Shown: positions 2,281 to 24,198 of the stretch, in pieces | Position numbering within the stretch: the stretch's first letter is position 1 | Layout: each line of letters starts with the position of its first letter | Source: Candidatus Omnitrophota bacterium | GTDB taxonomy: Bacteria; Omnitrophota; Gorgyraeia; Gygaellales; Profunditerraquicolaceae | Assembly (NCBI GenBank): GCA_028716245.1 | Contig: JAQUQW010000001.1 | Location: forward strand, 549,925-613,924 | Direction of reading: 5' to 3' | Length of the DNA stretch: 64,000 bases | Translations under genes and position numbers: made by a program | Notes under the pieces: generated by a model | What the model was told of the DNA's origin: nothing | Database searches by the model: none | The model's input: the letters and a program-made list of their open reading frames with translations, nothing else

Positions 2281-2342
2281 ATAGCAAATTCCTTGCTCGT
2301 TTCACTCGCAAGGATTTCGTTAGATCAAAACTTAAGGTGCTC

Positions 2343-2400
2343 AAATTCGGCCAACAAACTTATGTTCGCTGTCGCTCCATAAGTTGGGGCCTCATTTAAG
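2343..2400 (-). repeat. partial, inverted copy of the 84-nt hairpin element (first hairpin only), directly after the tRNA-Pro 3-prime end
   Basis: The minus strand reads ttaaatgagg...aacttatggagcgacagcgaacataagtt...cgaattt. It shares ttaaatgag, the aactta/taagtt stem with a compensated C-to-T/G-to-A pair, and cgaattt with the full copies. The atcccgcc/ggcgggat hairpin is absent. Confidence 0.5.
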
Positions 2401-2474
2401 TCGGGGCGACAGGACTTGAACCTGTGACCTCAGCGTCCCGAACGCTGCGCTCTACCAAGCTGAGCCACGCCCCG
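2401..2474 (-). tRNA. tRNA-Pro (anticodon CGG)
   Basis: Reverse complement CGGGGCGTGGCTCAGCTTGGTAGAGCGCAGCGTTCGGGACGCTGAGGTCACAGGTTCAAGTCCTGTCGCCCCGA folds into a 74-nt cloverleaf: 7-bp acceptor stem, D-arm GCTC/GAGC, anticodon stem CAGCG/CGCTG with loop TTCGGGA, T-arm ACAGG/CCTGT. CCA is not encoded. Confidence 0.9.
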
Positions 2475-2528
2475 TATTAATTAAATAAGTATATCAGAAA
2501 TTTAGAGTATGCGCAATAATAGAAAGGA

Positions 2529-3104
2529 TTAAGCGGGATTCTTTTTGGCGAGGATATCAAATTCCACGTTCAACTTATCCGCAGGACCCTTAAAATTTAA
2601 AGTTGTATTCTTAAGGGTATGCGGAATAATACAAACATTAATGATATTGGCGCGCGCGCCGGCTAAGGTTAAGCTGATCCCATCCAGGGCAATTGACCCT
2701 TTAGGCAGGCAATAACGCATAAAAGAGGCGGGAATTGAAATCTCAAACTCAAAGCTGCCATTACGCAAACCTTTCCTGCGCACCAGCCCCAGGCAATCGA
2801 TATGCCCCCTGACAAAATGCCCGCTGACCCGGTCTCCCACCTTAAGGCTGCGCTCAAGATTAACTTTTTGGCCGGTTTTTAATAATCCCAGGTTGGTATT
2901 TTTGCGGGTAGTATCGATGACTTCAAAACTAACCGAATTATTTCCTATAAAAACTGCGGTAAGGCATACGCCGTTAACCGCGATGCTCTCACCAATCTTG
3001 GTATCAACCAAAACTTCTTTAGCGCCAACCTCCAAGAGGGTTATCCCTGCCTGGTGAGCTATTTTTTTTACCTGCCCCAACTCTTCGACAATACCCGTAA
3101 ACAT
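2529..3104 (-). CDS. ribE: riboflavin synthase alpha subunit
   Basis: MFTGIVEELG N-terminus. I took the start as the internal ATG at 3104; the track ORF extends to 3125 and would overlap the ribD stop. Confidence 0.85.
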   Translation of the reverse strand: MFTGIVEELGQVKKIAHQAGITLLEVGAKEVLVDTKIGESIAVNGVCLTAVFIGNNSVSFEVIDTTRKNTNLGLLKTGQKVNLERSLKVGDRVSGHFVRGHIDCLGLVRRKGLRNGSFEFEISIPASFMRYCLPKGSIALDGISLTLAGARANIINVCIIPHTLKNTTLNFKGPADKLNVEFDILAKKNPA

Positions 3105-3105
3105 T

Positions 3106-4200
3106 TTAGCCAACCCTTGCCTCAATTAAAAACTCTTCATCAAAACGCCTGATCTTTAAACCGTGTAATTTTATTGCCTGGTCTACGCGCTTAACCCCGG
3201 TACCCATCACCGAAGAAACAGCGTCTTTGCCGCCGATAATCTTAGGGCTGATAAAAAATAAAATCTTATCCACCAGCTTTTCATCAAAGAGCGAGCCGAT
3301 CAAAGTCCCTCCGCCTTCGACGATAATACTGCTAATTTGTAATTGTGCCAATTTCTTAAGCGCGTCGCGTAAATTAATCTGGCCGCTTTTCTCCTTAACC
3401 TCAAGGATTTTGGCTTTTGCCGCCAGGTGCTTGCGATTTTCGGTCTCCTGGCCCGGGCGGCTGGGTAAAGTAACAATGATCACCTGGGCATCCCCTGAAA
3501 AAATATCGGAATTCTCAGGCGTACTCAAATTGCTATCGACAATTATCTTGATTAATTTTTTTTGGGAAAACCAGGTATCCAGGCGCGGGTTATCCCGTAA
3601 GACGGTATTAACCCCCACCATAATCGCGTCATAATCTTGGCGTAATTTATGCGCAAAACTCCGGGACTTATCGGAAGTAATCCATTTAGAGTCCCCGGTG
3701 CGCGTGGCGATCCGTCCATCCAAAGACTGGCCGACTTTTACCGTAATAAACGGAACCCTGGTCGTAATATATTTTATAAAACTCTCATTAATTTTTTTTA
3801 GTTGATCCTCTAAAAACCCCGCTCTTACTTTAATATTACTTTGCTTAAGCAACATCAGGCCCCGGCCATTATTCAAGGGGTTAGGATCAATCATCCCGAC
3901 AACCACTTCTTTTATGCCGCTTTCAATTATCCGGTTAACACAAGGCGCAGTTCTGCCGGTATGGGCGCAGGGCTCAAGAGTAACATAGAGAGTTGCCCCT
4001 CTTGCTTTATTTCCCGCTTCATCCAGAGCAATAATCTCCGCGTGCGCCAGCCCGGCTTTAGCATGAAAACCCCGTCCGACAATCTTGCCGGCCTTTACTA
4101 CCAATGAGCCGACCAAAGGATTGGGGGAGGTTTTTCCTTTTGCTTTAAGCGCTAACTTTAAAGCTAATCCCATATAATATTCATCCGTACGTTTAATCAT
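3106..4200 (-). CDS. ribD: bifunctional diaminohydroxyphosphoribosylaminopyrimidine deaminase / 5-amino-6-(5-phosphoribosylamino)uracil reductase
   Basis: 364 aa with the CMP/dCMP deaminase zinc motif HAEIIAL...PCAHTGRTAPC and a C-terminal reductase domain. Confidence 0.9.
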   Translation of the reverse strand: MIKRTDEYYMGLALKLALKAKGKTSPNPLVGSLVVKAGKIVGRGFHAKAGLAHAEIIALDEAGNKARGATLYVTLEPCAHTGRTAPCVNRIIESGIKEVVVGMIDPNPLNNGRGLMLLKQSNIKVRAGFLEDQLKKINESFIKYITTRVPFITVKVGQSLDGRIATRTGDSKWITSDKSRSFAHKLRQDYDAIMVGVNTVLRDNPRLDTWFSQKKLIKIIVDSNLSTPENSDIFSGDAQVIIVTLPSRPGQETENRKHLAAKAKILEVKEKSGQINLRDALKKLAQLQISSIIVEGGGTLIGSLFDEKLVDKILFFISPKIIGGKDAVSSVMGTGVKRVDQAIKLHGLKIRRFDEEFLIEARVG

Positions 4201-5011
4201 TTTTTAGCCCGCGAAGTTTTTCTACCAGTTCAAACGGTATTTTAACCATACCCAGCTTTATATCCGGTTTTGCGCTGCCGTGAAAATCACTGCCTCCGCT
4301 AACCGCAAGATTAAGTTTCTTAGCTAATTCCAAATAAAAATTAACCAGCGATTGGGAATGTTCGGGGTAATAAATCTCTATTCCCTGTAAGCCATATCCT
4401 GCGAATTCAGTAATCAAAGCGTCATTACGCAGTAAATAGGGATGCGCCAAAACAGCCACCCCGCCGGCATCTTTAATCATTTTTATCGCCTCCTGCACGG
4501 AAAGATAAAAACCCAAAACATAGGCCGGGGACCTGTCCCCTATATATTTACGAAATGCCTCGGGGATATTGGCGACATGGCCCTCTTTGACTAATGCCCG
4601 GGCAATATGCATCCGGCCCACCGTAGATTCTCCGGAAATGCCAAAAACAGTATTGGCATCAAGATTAACTCCCAATCCTGCTAAATTTTTTACGATTTTA
4701 TACACCCGCTCAACACGGTTTTCCCGTAATGAAATTAATTTTCTAAGCAACGCCTTATTTCGATAATCCAGGAAATACCCGAGTATATGTATCTCCTGGC
4801 CTTCATGTCGGGCGGTCAATTCAATCCCGGGAATAATTTCCAGATCTTTACCTTCTGCTTCAGCTATTGAGGCAGAAATCGCATCCACGGTATCGTGATC
4901 AACTATGGCAATTGCCGAAAGCTTACGTTTGATACTTTCCTTGACTAATTGCGCCGGCCCAAATGTACCGTCGCTAGCCAAAGTATGCACGTGCAAATCA
5001 GCGTATTTCAT
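4193..5011 (-). CDS. PHP-domain phosphoesterase (TrpH/YciV-like)
   Basis: N-terminal DLHVHTLASDG metal-binding PHP signature, 272 aa. Overlaps the ribD start by 8 nt and the nusB stop by 4 nt. Confidence 0.7.
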   Translation of the reverse strand: MKYADLHVHTLASDGTFGPAQLVKESIKRKLSAIAIVDHDTVDAISASIAEAEGKDLEIIPGIELTARHEGQEIHILGYFLDYRNKALLRKLISLRENRVERVYKIVKNLAGLGVNLDANTVFGISGESTVGRMHIARALVKEGHVANIPEAFRKYIGDRSPAYVLGFYLSVQEAIKMIKDAGGVAVLAHPYLLRNDALITEFAGYGLQGIEIYYPEHSQSLVNFYLELAKKLNLAVSGGSDFHGSAKPDIKLGMVKIPFELVEKLRGLKND

Positions 5012-5424
5012 TTTTCTTTCTCAATTTTTACTTGGTCCAAAATGGCGTTGACAAATTTTCCGGACTCAAGGCCGGAATATTTCTTGGCCAACTCCACAGC
5101 TTCGTTGATGGCAACCTTAGGCGGAATATCCTGCCGAAACAAGAGTTCAAAACAACCCAGGCGCATAATATTGCGGTCCACAAATGCCATACGTTCAAGC
5201 TGCCAGTTGGCCGCGTATTTGCTGATCTTTTTATCAATCTCCTGCATATGGTTGACTACCCCGCCAAGCAGTTCCGCGGAAAAATCCTTAAGTTCACCGG
5301 GAATATCATCCCGCTCATTACTCAGCCAGAAATTTTCCAAAGTTTCCTGCCAATTACCGCGGGTAATCTCCACCTGGTAAAGCATTTGCAACACATATTC
5401 ACGCGCTTTAGTCCGTTTTCTCAT
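5008..5424 (-). CDS. nusB: transcription antitermination factor NusB
   Basis: MRKRTKAREYVLQMLYQ... is a typical NusB N-terminus. I chose the ATG at 5424; the track ORF start at 5454 lies inside the repeat element. There is no SD before the ATG. Confidence 0.85.
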   Translation of the reverse strand: MRKRTKAREYVLQMLYQVEITRGNWQETLENFWLSNERDDIPGELKDFSAELLGGVVNHMQEIDKKISKYAANWQLERMAFVDRNIMRLGCFELLFRQDIPPKVAINEAVELAKKYSGLESGKFVNAILDQVKIEKEK

Positions 5425-5516
5425 TAAATGAGCGCTTAAGTTATGGAGATGCATGTTGAATGTATCGACATAACTTAATGCGCGAATTTATCCCGCCGAA
5501 TAATTTGAGGCGGGAT
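5424..5516 (-). repeat. two-hairpin intergenic element, copy 1 (variant with a compensated stem and a larger loop)
   Basis: ttaaatgagcgcttaagttatg...cataacttaatgcgcgaatttatcccgccgaataatttgaggcgggat. It lies between the ribH stop and the nusB ATG, and the nusB ATG directly abuts it. Confidence 0.8.
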
Positions 5517-5523
5517 CAAGTTA

Positions 5524-5991
5524 TTATTTTAGCTGTCCTGATAAATTGATCATCTCAATAGCCGAAAGAGCCGCGTCCCTGCCCTTGTTGCCATCTTTAG
5601 AACCTGCGCGTTCTACCGCCTGTTCGATGCTATCGGCGGTAATTATACCAAAGATAACCGGTAAGTTGCAATCCAAAGATACCTTGGCAACGCCTTTGGC
5701 GACTTCCGAAGCGATATAATCAAAATGCGGAGTTGCCCCGCGGATCACCGTGCCCAAACAAATCAAAGCATCAAATGATTTTGTTTTAGCCATTTTCTGG
5801 GCAACCAGCGGAACCTCAAATGCTCCCGGAACCCAGGCTACCGTAATATCTTTTTCTTCGGCGCCATGCCTGATCAAAGTATCAACGCAGCCGCTGACCA
5901 GCTCTTTGGTCATGAAATCATTAAACCGGGAAGCCACCAAACCAAAACTCTGCCCCTTTGCCAACAGCTTACCTTCAATTACCTTTACCAT
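5524..5991 (-). CDS. ribH: 6,7-dimethyl-8-ribityllumazine synthase
   Basis: 155 aa in the lumazine synthase family (GAFEVP...[14 protein letters not shown]). Confidence 0.9.
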
Positions 5992-6004
5992 GTTTCCTCC
6001 CTTG

Positions 6005-7213
6005 TTAAAGTTCCAACTGATGCCCTAGTTTCTCTTTTTTTGTTTTTAAATATTTATAATTTTCCGCGTTGGGCGCGATCTCTAAAGGCAGGCGCTCGGA
6101 AACCTCCAGGCCATAACCTTCCAGACCCACAATCTTGCGCGGATTATTCGTTAACAACCTGATCTTTTTAACCCCTAAATCTACCAGGATCTGGGCTCCG
6201 ATCCCGTAATCGCGCAGGTCAGCCTTATGCCCTAATGCTTCATTGGCTTGGACCGTATCCATTCCCTTATCCTGAAGATTGTACGCGCGTATCTTCTCAA
6301 CCAATCCAATCCCCCTGCCCTCCTGGTTCATATAAAGGATTATCCCTTTTTTCTCGCGGGCAATAATCTGCATGGCTTTCTCTAACTGCCGGCCGCAGTC
6401 ACAGCGTAATGAACCAAAAACATCTCCGGTTAAACACTCTGAATGCACGCGCACCAATATCGATTCATCAAACCCGCTCCCCATGCACAAAGCAATATGG
6501 GTTTGGCCATTGGTTTTATCGCGATAAATAGTTAACTTAAATTCTCCGAATTTTGTGGGCAATTTAGTCTGGACAACCGCTTCCACTAATTTTTCTCTCC
6601 TGCGGCGATATTCAATCAGGCTGGCAATAGTGCAGATCTTTAAACTATGCTTTTTGGCAAACTCCCGAAGCTGCGGCAGGCGGGCCATGGTCCCGTCATC
6701 ATTCATAATCTCACAAATCACTCCGGCAGGATAAAGCCCGGCCAGGCGCATTAAATCCAGGCTGGCTTCAGTATGCCCTGCCCTGACTAAAACCCCGCCC
6801 AGGTGGGAACGTAAAGGGAAAATATGCCCCGGACGAATTAGATCCTCCGGCTTAGCTTGAGGATTAATTAAAACTTCAATTGTCTTAGCCCGGTCATGAG
6901 CCGAAATTCCCGTAGTTATCCCGTGAGCCGCGTCCACTGAAATCATCCAGGCAGTTTTAAAAGGATCTTCTTTGGAAGCTGCCAGGGTATTCTTAAGCAT
7001 CGGGTCAAGCTCCAGGAAGCGCAGCCTTTCCTCCTCCATTGGAACACAAATAAGCCCCCGGCCGAATTTAGCCATAAAGTTTATATCTTCAGGCTTGACG
7101 CTTGAGGCAGCCATCACTAAATCACCCTCATTTTCGCGGTCCTCATCATCAATGACGACCACCATCTTACCGGCTTTTAAATCTTCGATAATTTCTGGAA
7201 TGGTGTTAAACAT
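6005..7213 (-). CDS. ribBA: bifunctional 3,4-dihydroxy-2-butanone-4-phosphate synthase / GTP cyclohydrolase II
   Basis: 402 aa: an N-terminal DHBP synthase domain and a C-terminal GTP cyclohydrolase II domain with the CxCxRQ zinc motif (CDCGRQ). Confidence 0.9.
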
Positions 7214-7228
7214 AAGTTATCCGCTCAA

Positions 7229-7256
7229 TAAAAAACCCGAAAACAGAATCTTCGGG
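7229..7256 (-). terminator. Rho-independent terminator/attenuator between the FMN aptamer and ribBA
   Basis: Minus strand CCCGAAGATTCTGTTTTCGGG followed by TTTTTTATT. Confidence 0.7.
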
Positions 7257-7271
7257 CGTATTGATTTTAAT

Positions 7272-7490
7272 CTTCTCTCATCTGGACTTTCCCATATAGA
7301 AGCAACACCCCGCGCTAAATGGAATCACGCGGGTGTCCATCTGCATGGACCATCGGCCCTGGAATCTCACCAGATCTGCGGGCGCCTGCATCTTTGCGCC
7401 TGCTCGCGGGCTTTTCACTTGGCGCTATTAGGAAGCGCCGGTGCGCGCTTGTTGCGCGACCGCCGGTAAGGATTTACACCTTGCCCTAAA
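7272..7490 (-). promoter_or_regulatory. FMN riboswitch (RFN element) aptamer
   Basis: Minus strand: GGGCAAGGTGTAAATCCTTACCGGCGGT...CCAAGTGAAAAGCCCGCGAGC...GCAGATCTGGTGAGATTCCAGGGCCGATGGT...AGTCCAGATGAGAGAAG. These match the conserved RFN blocks. The element is GC-rich relative to its surroundings and lies upstream of ribBA. Confidence 0.9.
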
Positions 7491-19440: not shown

Positions 19441-22353
19441 TTAGCGGATTACGGCAAAGGGGCAAATTTGGTTATAAGCGCAATAAGTGCAGGCTTTGTA
19501 TTCGGGTTTGGCCGGGTACTCTTGCTGGCGAATACCCTTAGAAACGATCAGAATATCCTCTTTTACTTCCTCTATTTTATCCTCGGTAACCTTATGCCTG
19601 CCGACAATCCCGGACTCTAAGAAGTATAACTCTACCGCGGCAGGCAAGACTCCGGAAATGTGCTGATAGGCCAGGGCATAAAGGATCAACTGCTTATTTT
19701 CCTTGACCCGCTTGTCCGCGTCCTTCTGGGTTTTGATCTCGGAGGTCTTAAAATCCATAATCACCGCTCCGTCATCCCGTATATCGATGCGGTCAAACCT
19801 GCCGGTAATCTTATTGCCTCCGATAACAAAAGAAAAAGGCTCCTCGATAAATTTGGGAGTCAAATTACGCCTTTCTTCATCCTTATAAAATCTGGATAAA
19901 GCCTCCCTGCCGATGCGAAAACGCTCCTCCTGATGATTAGAATCTAAAAAACCCTGCGGATCAAAACTAGCTTCAAAACAATCCAGGAGTTTATCCATAG
20001 ACACCTTTTCCCCTTTAAGCTTACGCAATAAATATTGGCTGACTGCCTCGTGCATTGCCCGGCCGTAAATAACCGTATGATGCTCCATAATCGGCACGCG
20101 CAGGATATTGACATATTTATATTTTAAAGGGCAGGTCAGATAATCATCGATCTGATAATAACTTAAAGTGATTAACTTATCTTCCGGGATTTCCTGGAGA
20201 GCTGATTTCGACAACTCCTTAACCGGAGTAAAACGCTGGATACTTTCAATCGCCGCGGTTTTTTTCTTTTCCACTTCTTCCACGGATTTTTTACCTAACG
20301 CCTCCAAGACAAATTGGCTTACCTTACGCAGGCGCTTGCCGCCATAATCATCAGCGCTGGTTAAATACAATTCTTCTTTGGAGCGGGTCATTCCCACATA
20401 AAAAAGCCGGCGCTCCTCCTGAGTATGAAAATCTCCGGTCGGCAAAACTTCTTTAATCAAAGCATCCGGCAATTCGATTTGCTGTGAACGTCTAGGCAGG
20501 GGAAATTTTCCCTGTACCAGGCTGACTAAAAATACCGCTCTAAATTCCAAACCTTTAGCTTTATGGATAGTCAAAATATTCACCGCATCCTGATCTAGGT
20601 CCGCCTCGACTGTCGGCGGGTCATCTCCGGAATCAATCAAGAGGTTAAGGTGTTTGATAAAACTAATTACTCTGTCCTCTTTAGCGATCAGTTCATAATC
20701 ACGCACCTGATTAAAAAATTTAGCGATGTTTTGAATCTTAGCTTCTTTTTCTAAAGTTGGATTATGGGTTAAATATTTAAGATAACCCGTATCAGTCAAA
20801 AAACTATACAGCAGCCTGCCGGTTGTCTCATTACGGGAAACCTGCAGAAATTTTTCAATTTCTTCAAGCACCCGCTTTATTTTATCCTTAGTCTGGTCCT
20901 GAACCTGGGCTAACTCCGGGATCTTTTCCAAATCGCCAAACACCGAATAAAGCGAACGGTTCCTGCGCCGGGCAAAGTGGTTGCACAATGTCAAATCAGC
21001 TAGGTTTACTTTATAGATTTCAGAACTTACCAGATAATATAAACTTAATGAATCCGAAGGATTGGCAATTACCCGCAGGAAATTAATACACAACTTGACC
21101 TCTTCCCGGGCGTATAAACCCTGGTTACCGCTAAACTGCCAGGGAATATTCTGCATATTCAGCGACTGGATAAAACTTTGGGCATCGGAATTGGAGCGCA
21201 CCAGGATGGCAAAATCCCTATACTTAAACTTACCTAAACTTACTTTATCTAGTATAATCTTACTTACATTATCAGCCTCAGCCGAATGCGTATCAAAGTG
21301 CAAATGGATTGGCTTTTCGCCCTTTTTAGTCAAGCCGATCAGGTGTTTATCGATTTTAGCTTTGACCTCAAAACGCTCGGGATTATTATTTTGGATCAAC
21401 TGGTAGGCGCTATCTAAAATTGGCTGGGTCGAGCGGTAATTCTGGATCAGGGTAATTTTTTCAGCATCAGGATATTCTTTATTGAAATTTACCAGATTAC
21501 TGTAGGCAGCTCCGCGCCAGCGATAAATACACTGGTCATCATCTCCGACAACCGTAACATTTTTTAAGGAGCCGGCAAGCAACTTGACAATTTGGAACTG
21601 CGCAAAATTAGTATCCTGGAATTCATCAACTAAAATATATTTAAATTGTTTCTGGTAATTCTGTAAAACCAAAGGATGCTCCCGCAACAGTTGTAAACTT
21701 AAATAAAACTGATTGCCAAAATCAACCAATCCTTCTCTGGCCAAAAGTTCCTGGTATTTAACGTAAGAAGCGGCTACCTCCATCTGCTGCGCTGCCAATT
21801 CTTCCGTGGCTTTGTCTTCCGGATTGCTCTTGGCCTGGATTAGAAAATCCTGCGCGTATTTTAAATACTCTTTGGCTGAAATATCCTCATCTTTTGCCCG
21901 GCTAAAAAATGAAATCAGCGCTTCGATAAAACGGGTGGGCTCAGCTAACGGCCGGTAATAATCAAGCGTGAATTCAAAAAGATGCTCGCGGAAAAACACC
22001 GCTGCCTCCGGCTGGGTGAGCACCTTAAAATCCGGATTTAATCCGGCAACTAAAGCGTTCTCGCGCAAGAGACGATCACCAAAAGCGTGAAATGTAGAGA
22101 TCCAAATATCCGTATAACCGTAAGGCATCAGGATATCCACCCTTTCCTGCATTTCCTTAGCTGCCTTATCGGTAAAAGTAAGCGCTAAGATTTCATCGGT
22201 CTTGGCCAAGCTCTGATTAATCAACCAGGCAATGCGCTGGGTAATTACGCGGGTCTTGCCCGTCCCCGCGCCGGCAATAATTAAAAGCGACCCGTCTTTA
22301 TGGGTAGCCGCCTGCACCTGCTCTTTATTTAATCCTTCTAATACTTTATCCAT
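19441..22353 (-). CDS. UvrD/PcrA-type superfamily-1 helicase fused to a C-terminal Cas4/AddB-like PD-(D/E)XK nuclease with a Cys4 cluster
   Basis: N-terminal GAGTGKT Walker A and UvrD motifs. The C-terminus has TCPLKYKY, DFKTSE and C-x2-C-x5-C (CTYCAYNQIC). Confidence 0.8.
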   Translation of the reverse strand: MDKVLEGLNKEQVQAATHKDGSLLIIAGAGTGKTRVITQRIAWLINQSLAKTDEILALTFTDKAAKEMQERVDILMPYGYTDIWISTFHAFGDRLLRENALVAGLNPDFKVLTQPEAAVFFREHLFEFTLDYYRPLAEPTRFIEALISFFSRAKDEDISAKEYLKYAQDFLIQAKSNPEDKATEELAAQQMEVAASYVKYQELLAREGLVDFGNQFYLSLQLLREHPLVLQNYQKQFKYILVDEFQDTNFAQFQIVKLLAGSLKNVTVVGDDDQCIYRWRGAAYSNLVNFNKEYPDAEKITLIQNYRSTQPILDSAYQLIQNNNPERFEVKAKIDKHLIGLTKKGEKPIHLHFDTHSAEADNVSKIILDKVSLGKFKYRDFAILVRSNSDAQSFIQSLNMQNIPWQFSGNQGLYAREEVKLCINFLRVIANPSDSLSLYYLVSSEIYKVNLADLTLCNHFARRRNRSLYSVFGDLEKIPELAQVQDQTKDKIKRVLEEIEKFLQVSRNETTGRLLYSFLTDTGYLKYLTHNPTLEKEAKIQNIAKFFNQVRDYELIAKEDRVISFIKHLNLLIDSGDDPPTVEADLDQDAVNILTIHKAKGLEFRAVFLVSLVQGKFPLPRRSQQIELPDALIKEVLPTGDFHTQEERRLFYVGMTRSKEELYLTSADDYGGKRLRKVSQFVLEALGKKSVEEVEKKKTAAIESIQRFTPVKELSKSALQEIPEDKLITLSYYQIDDYLTCPLKYKYVNILRVPIMEHHTVIYGRAMHEAVSQYLLRKLKGEKVSMDKLLDCFEASFDPQGFLDSNHQEERFRIGREALSRFYKDEERRNLTPKFIEEPFSFVIGGNKITGRFDRIDIRDDGAVIMDFKTSEIKTQKDADKRVKENKQLILYALAYQHISGVLPAAVELYFLESGIVGRHKVTEDKIEEVKEDILIVSKGIRQQEYPAKPEYKACTYCAYNQICPFAVIR

Positions 22354-22408
22354 AATAAAATTATACCACTCTAATTAAAGAATTGAAACAAAAAGGACTC
22401 AGGCGAGA

Positions 22409-22720
22409 TTATTTTAAGGTCACGGTTTGTGACCTTAAACGTAAAGGGACTACGTTGAATTTTAGGCCTAAACCAAGCGGAACTAGCATTTTTTCAAGCG
22501 TTGACATATTACTGAATTCACCACTTTCAATTTTTGAAACATGCTGTTGAGTTACCCCTACCTTTTCGGCAAATTCTCCTTGAGTTAAATTATGCTTGAT
22601 ACGATATTTAATAATCAGTTTGGCAATAATAAGCTTTTGCTGATCCAGTTCGTAAACTTCTCTAAACGCCGGATTTTTAAGCTTACCCCTTAGATGTTCT
22701 TCTACTCTCTCACTTTTCAT
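22409..22720 (-). CDS. higA: HigA-like XRE-family antitoxin/transcriptional regulator
   Basis: NPAFREVYE antidote-type N-terminus plus the HTH LTQGEFAEKVGVTQQHVSKIESGE. I took the start at the ATG at 22720, preceded by AAAGGCAGG; the track ORF begins at an upstream TTG. Confidence 0.7.
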   Translation of the reverse strand: MKSERVEEHLRGKLKNPAFREVYELDQQKLIIAKLIIKYRIKHNLTQGEFAEKVGVTQQHVSKIESGEFSNMSTLEKMLVPLGLGLKFNVVPLRLRSQTVTLK

Positions 22721-22734
22721 GATATCCTGCCTTT

Positions 22735-22924
22735 TCAATCTTTGCGCAGCGCTAAATACGCCTTTCTTCTATCTACAGCTAACTTTTTCTGATTAGCCGG
22801 TGTTTTATTGGTTTTCTTAATGAAACTATTTGTTTTGAGAATATCTGTCCAGCGCTTCAACAAACTCTTTAACCGGACACCTGCCGCTTTCGTTTTTAAA
22901 ATAAACGCATACTACACTAGACAC
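22735..22924 (-). pseudogene. degraded HigB/gp49-like (DUF891-type) toxin gene with an internal deletion plus frameshift
   Basis: GTG at 22924 gives VSSVVCVYFKNESGRCPVKEFVEALDRYSQNK, then a stop. The +1 frame continues with SFIKKTNKTPANQKKLAVDRRKAYLALRKD, the conserved toxin C-terminus, and its TGA overlaps the higA start region. Confidence 0.65.
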
Positions 22925-22940
22925 TTTCTCTACCTCTTAA

Positions 22941-22969
22941 AGTATACAACTAAATAGTTGTATTGTCAA
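22941..22969 (-). promoter_or_regulatory. TA-module promoter (TTGACA-17-TATACT) overlapped by a perfect palindromic operator ATACAACTAAATAGTTGTAT
   Basis: Minus strand: gaacTTGACAatacaactatttagttgTATACTttaagagg. The palindrome at 22944-22963 has 9-bp arms. Confidence 0.65.
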
Positions 22970-23036
22970 GTTCATAATTTTCTTCTCTACATCAATTGAC
23001 GTAGTAAGAGGTAAAATCTAACAGGTTATTTCCTTA

Positions 23037-23798
23037 TTATTTATTCCCTAATACTTCCGAGGCAGCTTTTCGGTAGACACAGAGATCACAGTCTTCCGCG
23101 GCTTGCGGAATCGTATCGCTATTTAAACACTGATGTATCTCTTTAATTGTGCCGCTAACCCAGCTATCATTGCCTTCATACGCGATAAGCGTTAAGTTAA
23201 ACTCTAATTTTGCGTCAAATTTCTCAAGCGCGGTATTACCGTTACAATATACAAAATATCCTGTGTTGATTACATTAAAACCATTACCCCGCAGCAACCA
23301 TTGGTAAATCTCCATCTGGCGCTTATATCCACCGTGCCACTCCTCATCCAAAGCATTGATTTCTTCAGGCTTGCTGGTAGACTTATAATCCACCACCATA
23401 TATTCGCCTTTACTGTTCTGCCATAAATCATCGATTGCCCCAAAGATTAGTAAATTCGTCGGCTTATCCAATACCTGAACCCCTTTGAAATTATTTCTCC
23501 ATTCATCCAACTGGGCAAGTTTTGCCGGGAACGCGTCCACTCCGTATTTTTTCATCAACGGATGCGCCTGGCCGCTTTTACGCAATAAATCAAACTCTTT
23601 TTTCAACAAGGTATCCACCGCGCTGTTTAAGGTATACGGGAACATCGGCGGAGCCCCCACCCCCAGCCGGCGGTCCAGGTAAAAACACCGCGGGCAATTC
23701 GTAAAAAGCTCAATCTTGGAACGGCTCAGCTTAAAGGGCTCGACGCTTTTAGGATTATAAAGGTTCCTGTCTCTTTTTGGCGTGTAGTATTCTGACAT
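23037..23798 (-). CDS. standalone Cas4-like PD-(D/E)XK nuclease with a Cys4 cluster
   Basis: N-terminal CPRCFY, the D...VVDYKST core, and C-terminal C-x12-C-x2-C, 253 aa. Confidence 0.65.
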   Translation of the reverse strand: MSEYYTPKRDRNLYNPKSVEPFKLSRSKIELFTNCPRCFYLDRRLGVGAPPMFPYTLNSAVDTLLKKEFDLLRKSGQAHPLMKKYGVDAFPAKLAQLDEWRNNFKGVQVLDKPTNLLIFGAIDDLWQNSKGEYMVVDYKSTSKPEEINALDEEWHGGYKRQMEIYQWLLRGNGFNVINTGYFVYCNGNTALEKFDAKLEFNLTLIAYEGNDSWVSGTIKEIHQCLNSDTIPQAAEDCDLCVYRKAASEVLGNK

Positions 23799-23805
23799 AT
23801 TTTCT

Positions 23806-24198
23806 CTATTTACGCTCTTTTACAAAAAGCGGCAATGAGGCTTTCTGCTGCCCATCGATGGCTAAATCAATCGAATACTCTCCCAGCCTCTGCAGATTTA
23901 ATCCTTGAATATTCAGAATCAAATGCGCTGAACCGGAGCTTTGCTCTTCGGGGAAATTCATGGTTATTACCCCTTGGGCGGGTGGAATGACATTTTTCCC
24001 ATCCGCGTCCACAAAATGCACCACGACTTTATGCTCTCCCCGTTCAATTTTCTCAAATCGCGCTCTCAAGGCAATCGCGCACTGTTGATGCACCGCCGGA
24101 GTTTTGGTTACCCAAATCGTGTCAAAGGCGCCAAGCATGCTAAGTTTACCGAAATCCGCGGTTGCCGCGTCACATAAAGCAAAGATTTCTATTTGCAT
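23806..24198 (-). CDS. hypothetical protein
   Basis: 130-aa ORF with no recognisable motif. Confidence 0.4.
   Translation of the reverse strand: MQIEIFALCDAATADFGKLSMLGAFDTIWVTKTPAVHQQCAIALRARFEKIERGEHKVVVHFVDADGKNVIPPAQGVITMNFPEEQSSGSAHLILNIQGLNLQRLGEYSIDLAIDGQQKASLPLFVKERK

Follow-up and report, generated by a model that had tools for sequence, protein, structure and literature searches.

The closest described counterparts of the locus considered here are of two kinds, HigBA toxin-antitoxin (TA) systems that carry a complete toxin and TA systems in which the toxin has been eroded. Among the former, HigBA of Streptococcus pneumoniae (6AF3/6AF4) and HigB1 of Mycobacterium tuberculosis (7NBU, 7AWK) are the nearest structures by sequence, and at the level of protein families the comparison is with PF05973 toxins paired with HTH_3 or HTH_37 antitoxins. 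Erosion has been documented in Photorhabdus, where 185 toxin-only pseudogenisations were counted versus 8 that affected only the antitoxin, and where toxin inactivation precedes antitoxin loss (Belot et al. 2026, PMC13617665). Orphan antitoxins are likewise abundant in Klebsiella (Horesh et al. 2020, PMC7192599). Loss of the toxin first is the expected order, because loss of the antitoxin first would be lethal.

The locus described here resides in a 64-kb window (the whole stretch of DNA that was analysed), which derives from a metagenome-assembled genome (MAG) of Candidatus Omnitrophota. It is very probably an eroding type II TA cassette of the HigBA kind, in which a Gp49 (PF05973) toxin with the RelE fold is encoded first and an XRE-type helix-turn-helix (HTH) antitoxin is encoded second. 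The toxin-first order is also that of the S. pneumoniae system, and both partners align with it, albeit as distant relatives: the toxin of an intact relative with HigB (6AF3_A, residues 8-102, E=1e-5) and the antitoxin profile with HigA (6AF3_B, residues 21-95, E=8e-6). The toxin also matches HigB1 of M. tuberculosis. Unlike the HigB proteins of these two species, however, the window copy lacks 47% of the toxin, and the locus is a relic of a HigBA-type module rather than a working member. A further difference from both systems is the operator ATACAAC-N6-GTTGTAT between the -35 and -10 elements, which is specific to an Omnitrophota-centred subfamily. With the eroded systems of Photorhabdus and Klebsiella (PMC13617665, PMC7192599), the locus shares a truncated or deleted toxin next to an intact antitoxin, the loss of the toxin first, insertion into a permissive intergenic site and patchy presence among close relatives. 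It differs from them in phylum (uncultured Omnitrophota), and also in that empty, full-length and deleted alleles have all been recovered, which allows a base-by-base reconstruction of the event. The phenomenon, two-step TA erosion, is well described, and the locus is a new and very cleanly documented case of it in an uncultured phylum. The features of the locus are collected in Table 1.

Table 1. Features of the cassette and its flanks (window coordinates), and loci of the same subfamily in which the toxin is lost (coordinates of each locus)
Feature	Position or locus	Strand	Details
Whole inserted TA cassette	22360-23032	-	673 bp at present; about 837 bp before the deletion
Conserved 5' leader of the cassette	22972-23032	-	GTTAGATT (23022-23015), 13 nt, CGTCAATT (23001-22994)
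Sigma-70-type promoter TTGACA-17-TATACT	22941-22969	-	-35 at 22969-22964; -10 at 22946-22941
Palindrome ATACAACTAAATAGTTGTAT	22944-22963		Arms ATACAACTA-nn-TAGTTGTAT; presumed operator for a HigA dimer
Toxin N-terminal remnant ORF	22826-22924	-	GTG start (22924), 32 aa, TAG stop at 22828-22826
Authentic toxin codons 1-30	22924-22835	-	Followed by out-of-frame junction codons and the TAG
Deletion junction	22834/22833	-	164 bp gone
Toxin C-terminal remnant	22735-22833	-	Codons 86-117 and TGA; -2 frame relative to the N-terminal part
Toxin-antitoxin spacer	22721-22734	-	14 nt, aaaggcaggatatc; includes Shine-Dalgarno-like AAGGCAGGA
Intact HigA-type antitoxin	22409-22720	-	103 aa, XRE HTH; ATG at 22720-22718
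Stem-loop	22413-22439	-	11 bp, TTTAAGGTCAC-AAACC-GTGACCTTAAA; overlaps the final 9 antitoxin codons
3' tail of the cassette	22360-22408	-	U-tract remnant GAGTCCTTTTTGTTT and extended -10-like TGGTATAAT
PD-(D/E)XK nuclease gene	23037-23798	-	MDD5477173.1; upstream flank, outside the cassette; PF12705, E=6.9e-13
UvrD-type helicase gene	19441-22353	-	970 aa, C-terminal nuclease domain; downstream flank
Toxin frameshifts	L017, L084
Toxin nonsense mutation	L047
Toxin internal deletion	L048 (1693-1974)
Toxin partial deletions	L055, L064 (2842-3001), L079
Toxin fully deleted	L023 (2958-3001), L069 (2917-3001)		Promoter and operator directly before the antitoxin
Toxin absent	L052, L054, L088		Operator absent

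Toxin and antitoxin are encoded side by side on one strand, the toxin first, and a single promoter precedes both. Only the two ends of the toxin are left, as the earlier note on this DNA had read from its letters. When intact toxins were used as tblastn queries, their residues 1-34 fell at 22924-22823 (frame -1) and their residues 86-117 at 22833-22738 (frame -2), with E values of 1e-12 to 1e-15 for both ends, and no further copy of a Gp49 toxin was found in the 64-kb window. These searches delimit the deletion in the way that the note had envisaged, and its reading of a 32-aa N-terminal fragment and of a C-terminus in another frame agrees with the open reading frames (ORFs), of which the C-terminal one extends over 22735-22863. 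The two fragments are 77-88% identical to the corresponding ends of the closest intact toxins (L001, L003, L004 and L013). Profile searches with PF05973, by which the note had proposed to check the assignment, succeeded for one fragment only. The C-terminal fragment matches profile positions 63-90 with 18.6 bits (E=0.002), which is below the gathering cut-off of 23.9 bits. The N-terminal fragment has no match to PF05973, as expected given that the profile begins at residue 20 of an intact relative. For comparison, the intact L013 toxin matches the complete profile with 84 bits (E=6.5e-24). NCBIfam holds no model that matches the toxin fragments or an intact toxin. One detail of the earlier reading has to be corrected: the toxin stop was said to overlap the antitoxin start, but the TGA (22737-22735) and the ATG are separated by the 14-nt spacer. 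Only a non-conserved upstream TTG (22738), which the relatives do not have, overlaps the toxin stop.

Intact copies are readily found in related genomes. Ten loci (L001-L004, L006, L007, L011-L013 and L094) carry an intact 117-aa PF05973 toxin directly upstream of an antitoxin that is 85-97% identical to that of the window, and their layout, toxin then antitoxin, is identical to that of the window, with a spacing of 13-16 nt. DNA alignments reveal a single clean gap of 164 bp in the window, which is the same against all relatives, including L104, where the cassette occupies the same site. The gap extends from nucleotide 2 of codon 31 through codon 85 (two nucleotides of codon 31 plus codons 32-85), in accord with the proposed loss of a core of roughly 55 residues, and the frame is shifted since 164 is not a multiple of three. 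No microhomology or repeat was found at the breakpoints when the window was aligned with intact sequence. The lost segment corresponds to positions 12-66 of the 90 in the Pfam profile, and most motifs shared by the 66 intact toxins are lost with it (LLEEFG, PHAKY, ELRF and the RVLYFF strand). With 47% of the protein and most of its conserved motifs gone, an active toxin would not be possible. A complete translatable toxin ORF is absent from the locus, and the translatable product of the remnant could be a 32-aa N-terminal peptide at most. In the C-terminal remnant, the near-invariant TNGF motif is also altered by G88S, and 63 of the 66 intact toxins have Gly at this position. L104 has both S11N and G88S in common with the window, and D94N is seen in the window alone.

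The sequence preserved at the two ends of the toxin bears on when the deletion occurred. For the remnants, dN/dS against relatives is 0.11-0.24, scarcely higher than the 0.04-0.17 for the same region of intact toxins, although this comparison spans 61 codons and is under-powered. For the antitoxin, dN/dS is 0.03-0.10 (0.05 against L104), and most of the divergence entering these values predates the deletion. Between the window and L104, the remnants differ by five non-synonymous changes, whereas about 26 are predicted if they had evolved neutrally since the split. Selection thus acted on the remnants during most of this interval, and we infer that the deletion happened recently compared with the divergence from the nearest relatives sampled. 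Changes private to the window number 0 synonymous and 3 non-synonymous in the remnants, and 3 synonymous and 1 non-synonymous in the antitoxin. These counts are too small for significance and point towards relaxation, while the dN/dS values are compatible with a recent event.

The site into which the cassette was inserted can be seen in its unoccupied state. In three close relatives, L099 (GCA_041643235.1), L100 and L101, 9-12 nt separate the nuclease stop codon from the helicase ATG (spacers at L099 5763-5774, L100 2293-2304 and L101 2827-2835), and the nucleases of these relatives are 94-96% identical to that of the window. A blastn comparison of L100 with the window pairs 1-2296 with 25328-23033 and 2299-7292 with 22359-17336, and leaves the 673 bp of the cassette unmatched. 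In L102, a more distant relative, an unrelated DUF362/4Fe-4S ferredoxin gene (4762-5835) is present at the same spot, and the site is therefore permissive. The spacer between nuclease and helicase genes is thus a recurrent insertion spot: three relatives have it unoccupied, the window and L104 carry the TA cassette there, and L102 carries the ferredoxin gene. The helicase orthologues match PF00580, PF13361 and PF12705, and the cassette splits what appears to be a two-gene repair operon. A DUF6941 gene (PF22091, E=4.9e-38; window 23806-24198, minus strand) lies directly upstream of the nuclease gene and is syntenic in every relative examined (L099-L103). Inspection of the insert by eye revealed neither terminal inverted repeats nor a clear target-site duplication, with boundaries that are ambiguous by 2-5 nt owing to A/T-rich similarity.

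The second carrier at this site, L104, shares its JGI sample of origin with L100 and L101, and its nuclease gene, cassette and helicase gene are arranged as in the window. Its antitoxin differs from that of the window at 3 of 103 residues, and its toxin DNA is full-length except for the loss of one nucleotide in a T6 run near codon 76, a frameshift that could be real or could be a sequencing error in the run. Between L104 and the window, dS is 0.18-0.23 for the cassette and 0.59-0.69 for the flanking genes, and nucleotide identity is about 95% for the cassette and about 89% for the flanks (L104 against window 21320-23636). This lower divergence of the cassette suggests that it was exchanged horizontally, at the same site, between Omnitrophota lineages that had already diverged. 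Elsewhere, the cassette occurs at 88-90% nucleotide identity in unrelated contexts, beside HtrA, LOG, OsmC and methyltransferase genes. No relatives of the antitoxin were found in viral contigs, and hence no phage vehicle.

The regulatory region upstream of the toxin remnant is undamaged. The promoter noted earlier is intact, with 11 of 12 consensus matches and a spacer of 17 nt. The palindrome consists, as described before, of two perfect 9-bp arms around a 2-nt centre, and it extends across the promoter spacer into the first half of the -10 element. It has one match in the 64 kb, compared with 0.06 expected in shuffles, and no second operator was found in the window even with two mismatches allowed. 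Using the antitoxin profile, we recovered 80 species-level loci and scored as an operator any match to at least 20 of the 29 positions of TTGACAATACAACTATTTAGTTGTATACT. The arrangement TTGACA-ATACAAC-N6-GTTGTATACT is kept in 69 of these 80 loci with unrelated flanks: over the 69 loci, the 29-nt core averages 1.55 bits per position, and the 25-nt flanks average 0.17 and 0.39 bits. The half-sites ACAAC and GTTGT are almost invariant, the central six bases are variable, and in three loci both half-sites have changed symmetrically, to ACAAG/CTTGT. Because the left half-site falls in the promoter spacer, where RNA polymerase imposes no constraint, its conservation is most naturally explained by a dimeric DNA-binding protein, for which the HTH antitoxin encoded alongside is the natural candidate. 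Conservation and symmetric half-site changes of this kind give strong comparative backing to the proposal that the palindrome is the HigA operator, with binding itself and the activity of the promoter predicted from sequence. The motif is now well supported as the operator of a Gp49-HigA subfamily.

The antitoxin gene was also correctly recognized as intact and HigA-like. Its product matches PF01381 (E=2.4e-11, 43.9 bits, cut-off 23) and PF13744 (29.3 bits, cut-off 27), and is 100% identical to the NCBI protein MDD5477172.1. The antitoxin profile matches the structures of 434 repressor, HipB and HigA. At the 3' end of the gene, the stem-loop is paired in 88 of 88 cells (11 pairs in 8 sequences), with compensatory double changes at five pairs and tolerance of G-U pairs, and none of 500 shuffles reached the observed score. 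This element is probably an RNA 3' hairpin, which might serve as a stabiliser or as a terminator stem. A comparable palindrome is located upstream of the promoter in L008 (about 3795-3825). An Rfam search of 22300-23100 returned only a chance-level match (E=0.4). Beyond the gene, the 3' tail is shared with L094, where positions 966-1007 match window 22399-22359 with 88% identity. L094 has a full terminator hairpin ahead of the matching tail, and the tail in the window holds the U-tract remnant. The extended -10-like sequence contributed by the cassette tail ends up only 6 nt ahead of the helicase ATG.

Loss of the toxin with retention of the antitoxin has occurred repeatedly in this subfamily. 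Among the 80 species-level loci, 66 encode the full-length toxin of 117 aa, 12 have lost it and two are uninformative (contig end, with part of the toxin visible), such that the toxin is lost and the antitoxin kept in 12 of 78 informative loci. The lesions range from frameshifts to complete deletion (Table 1). Additional cases include L093 (1-110), where about 300 bp were deleted at a 10-nt imperfect direct repeat (CAGARAAAGT), L008 (3846-3910) and L009, where the toxin is wholly lost and the operator kept, a second cassette in L003, in which the toxin is truncated, and L104 with its frameshift. The deletions in L093, L008/L009, L023, L069, L048 and L064 are independent and of differing extents, and promoter, operator and antitoxin are retained. 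The right breakpoint of L048 and the left breakpoint of L064 are within a few codons of the window breakpoints. In L005 (500-640, a Logan contig), the promoter and approximately the first 16 toxin codons are replaced by unrelated sequence from an upstream ORF, which represents either a different rearrangement or a chimeric assembly.

The observations show the following course of events. A promoter-bearing cassette of about 0.84 kb entered the 9-12-nt spacer between the nuclease and helicase genes. In the window lineage, 164 bp were then deleted from within the toxin gene, with loss of residues 31-85 and a shift of the frame. The deletion spared the promoter and the palindrome as well as the 3' RNA hairpin and the antitoxin gene, which has a ribosome-binding site of its own. 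The antitoxin dimer is predicted to bind the palindrome over the spacer and -10 element and thereby to repress its own promoter, in which case the remaining locus would be a self-limiting repressor gene. This is a small mobile TA pair at the ordinary first step in the decay of selfish modules, and its states form an unusually complete natural series within an uncultured phylum: the target is seen empty, occupied by a cassette whose toxin gene is full-length, and occupied by one with the deletion. Sister cassettes extend this series with frameshifts, a nonsense mutation, larger deletions and complete toxin loss. The locus is a clean illustration of 'toxin dies first' erosion outside Proteobacteria, and not a new kind of system.

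The earlier note had left the choice between recent toxin loss and domestication of the antitoxin. Recent loss is favoured, given that dN/dS of the remnants is about 0.15-0.2 and not near 1, and domestication gained no support of its own. Under domestication, an autoregulated HigA would be kept as an anti-addiction or immunity factor against related Omnitrophota HigB cassettes, or as a regulator. This is unlikely, although several observations agree with it: the window antitoxin retains all 24 family-invariant columns and has a low dN/dS; L008/L009, L023 and L069 keep promoter, operator and antitoxin after complete deletion of the toxin; the cassette is clearly mobile, shows a dS of only about 0.2 between the window and L104 where its flanks show about 0.6, and has related cassettes sharing one contig in L003, L033, L042 and L094; and the anti-addiction idea is present in the literature (PMC7192599). 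However, most of the purifying selection that was measured predates the deletion, and the 64-kb window contains neither the second operator copy by which a regulon would be recognized there nor another Gp49 toxin. Moreover, an antitoxin that outlasts its toxin is no less expected if the locus is passing through a transient stage of neutral decay.

A more specific proposal is that the toxin-dead cassette is an immunity allele, in which an autoregulated HigA guards against addiction by the closely related HigBA modules that move among Omnitrophota genomes, and attenuated cassettes spread from lineage to lineage by recombination. Both same-site carriers share G88S, and the lesser divergence of the cassette relative to its flanks bears on the same point. 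We nevertheless consider such an allele improbable.

There is very little likelihood that the gap is an artefact of metagenome assembly or binning and that the organism itself has an intact toxin. The sequence belongs to a 649-kb MAG contig in which the junction is known from the assembly, and L017, L084 and L104 differ from the intact form only by frameshifts that are possibly errors. However, assemblers collapse repeats, yet the breakpoints coincide with no repeat or microhomology in the intact sequence, both flanks are collinear with relatives, and independent deletions of other extents are present in other assemblies (L093, L048, L064 and L008/L009). The antitoxin and nuclease accessions are consecutive in NCBI, and therefore no protein is annotated between them. 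An error that merely separates two joinable frames, which the note had named as a way in which its reading could fail, is not borne out, as the 164 bp are missing relative to every relative, same-site L104 among them. Finally, a functional split or recoded toxin, made by programmed frameshifting between the fragments or consisting of an active 32-aa peptide, is already effectively refuted despite the intact GTG start and upstream signals of the N-terminal fragment, for the joined frames would still be without conserved residues 31-85, the fused sequence is below the Pfam threshold, and the architecture is absent from a family in which 66 of 80 loci encode the complete 117-aa toxin.

The preferred reading, recent toxin loss from a mobile cassette, leaves one further conserved element to be described. 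A leader of about 50 nt is present 20-70 nt upstream of the -35 element in many Gp49-HTH cassettes. Its two blocks, GTTAGATT and CGTC(T/A)ATT, are exactly 13 nt apart and invariant in 16 leaders from 12 loci. Copies are found in L001 (15-60), L003 (578-625 and 1383-1430), L020 (1103-1150), L011, L029, L031, L008 and L104, and multiple copies in L033 (both strands), L042 (two) and L094 (two). The leader also precedes sister cassettes of different sequence and occurs in tandem arrays, and the window holds no further copies beyond chance. A structured RNA was considered and rejected, with RNAalifold giving -1 kcal/mol and neither a consensus fold nor covariation. An integron attC site was likewise rejected. 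GTTAGAT fits the attC core GTTRRRY, but the insertion boundary and the direction of conservation do not fit: by the integron criteria (RYYYAAC...GTTRRRY, junction G/TT), the search for an inverse core site and an attC-like fold yielded neither, comparison with the empty site puts the left boundary of the insert 10-11 nt upstream of GTTAGAT, and the conserved sequence runs downstream of this heptamer, not upstream. The leader could be a protein-binding or recombination site. In several loci, a second, more distant Gp49-HTH cassette adjoins the first (L003 1434-1962, L033 1665-2320 on the minus strand, L094 2251-2556 and L042 at about 1810). The paired cassettes are arranged in tandem or inverted, each with the identical type of 5' leader, and Omnitrophota thus carry small clusters of TA cassettes.
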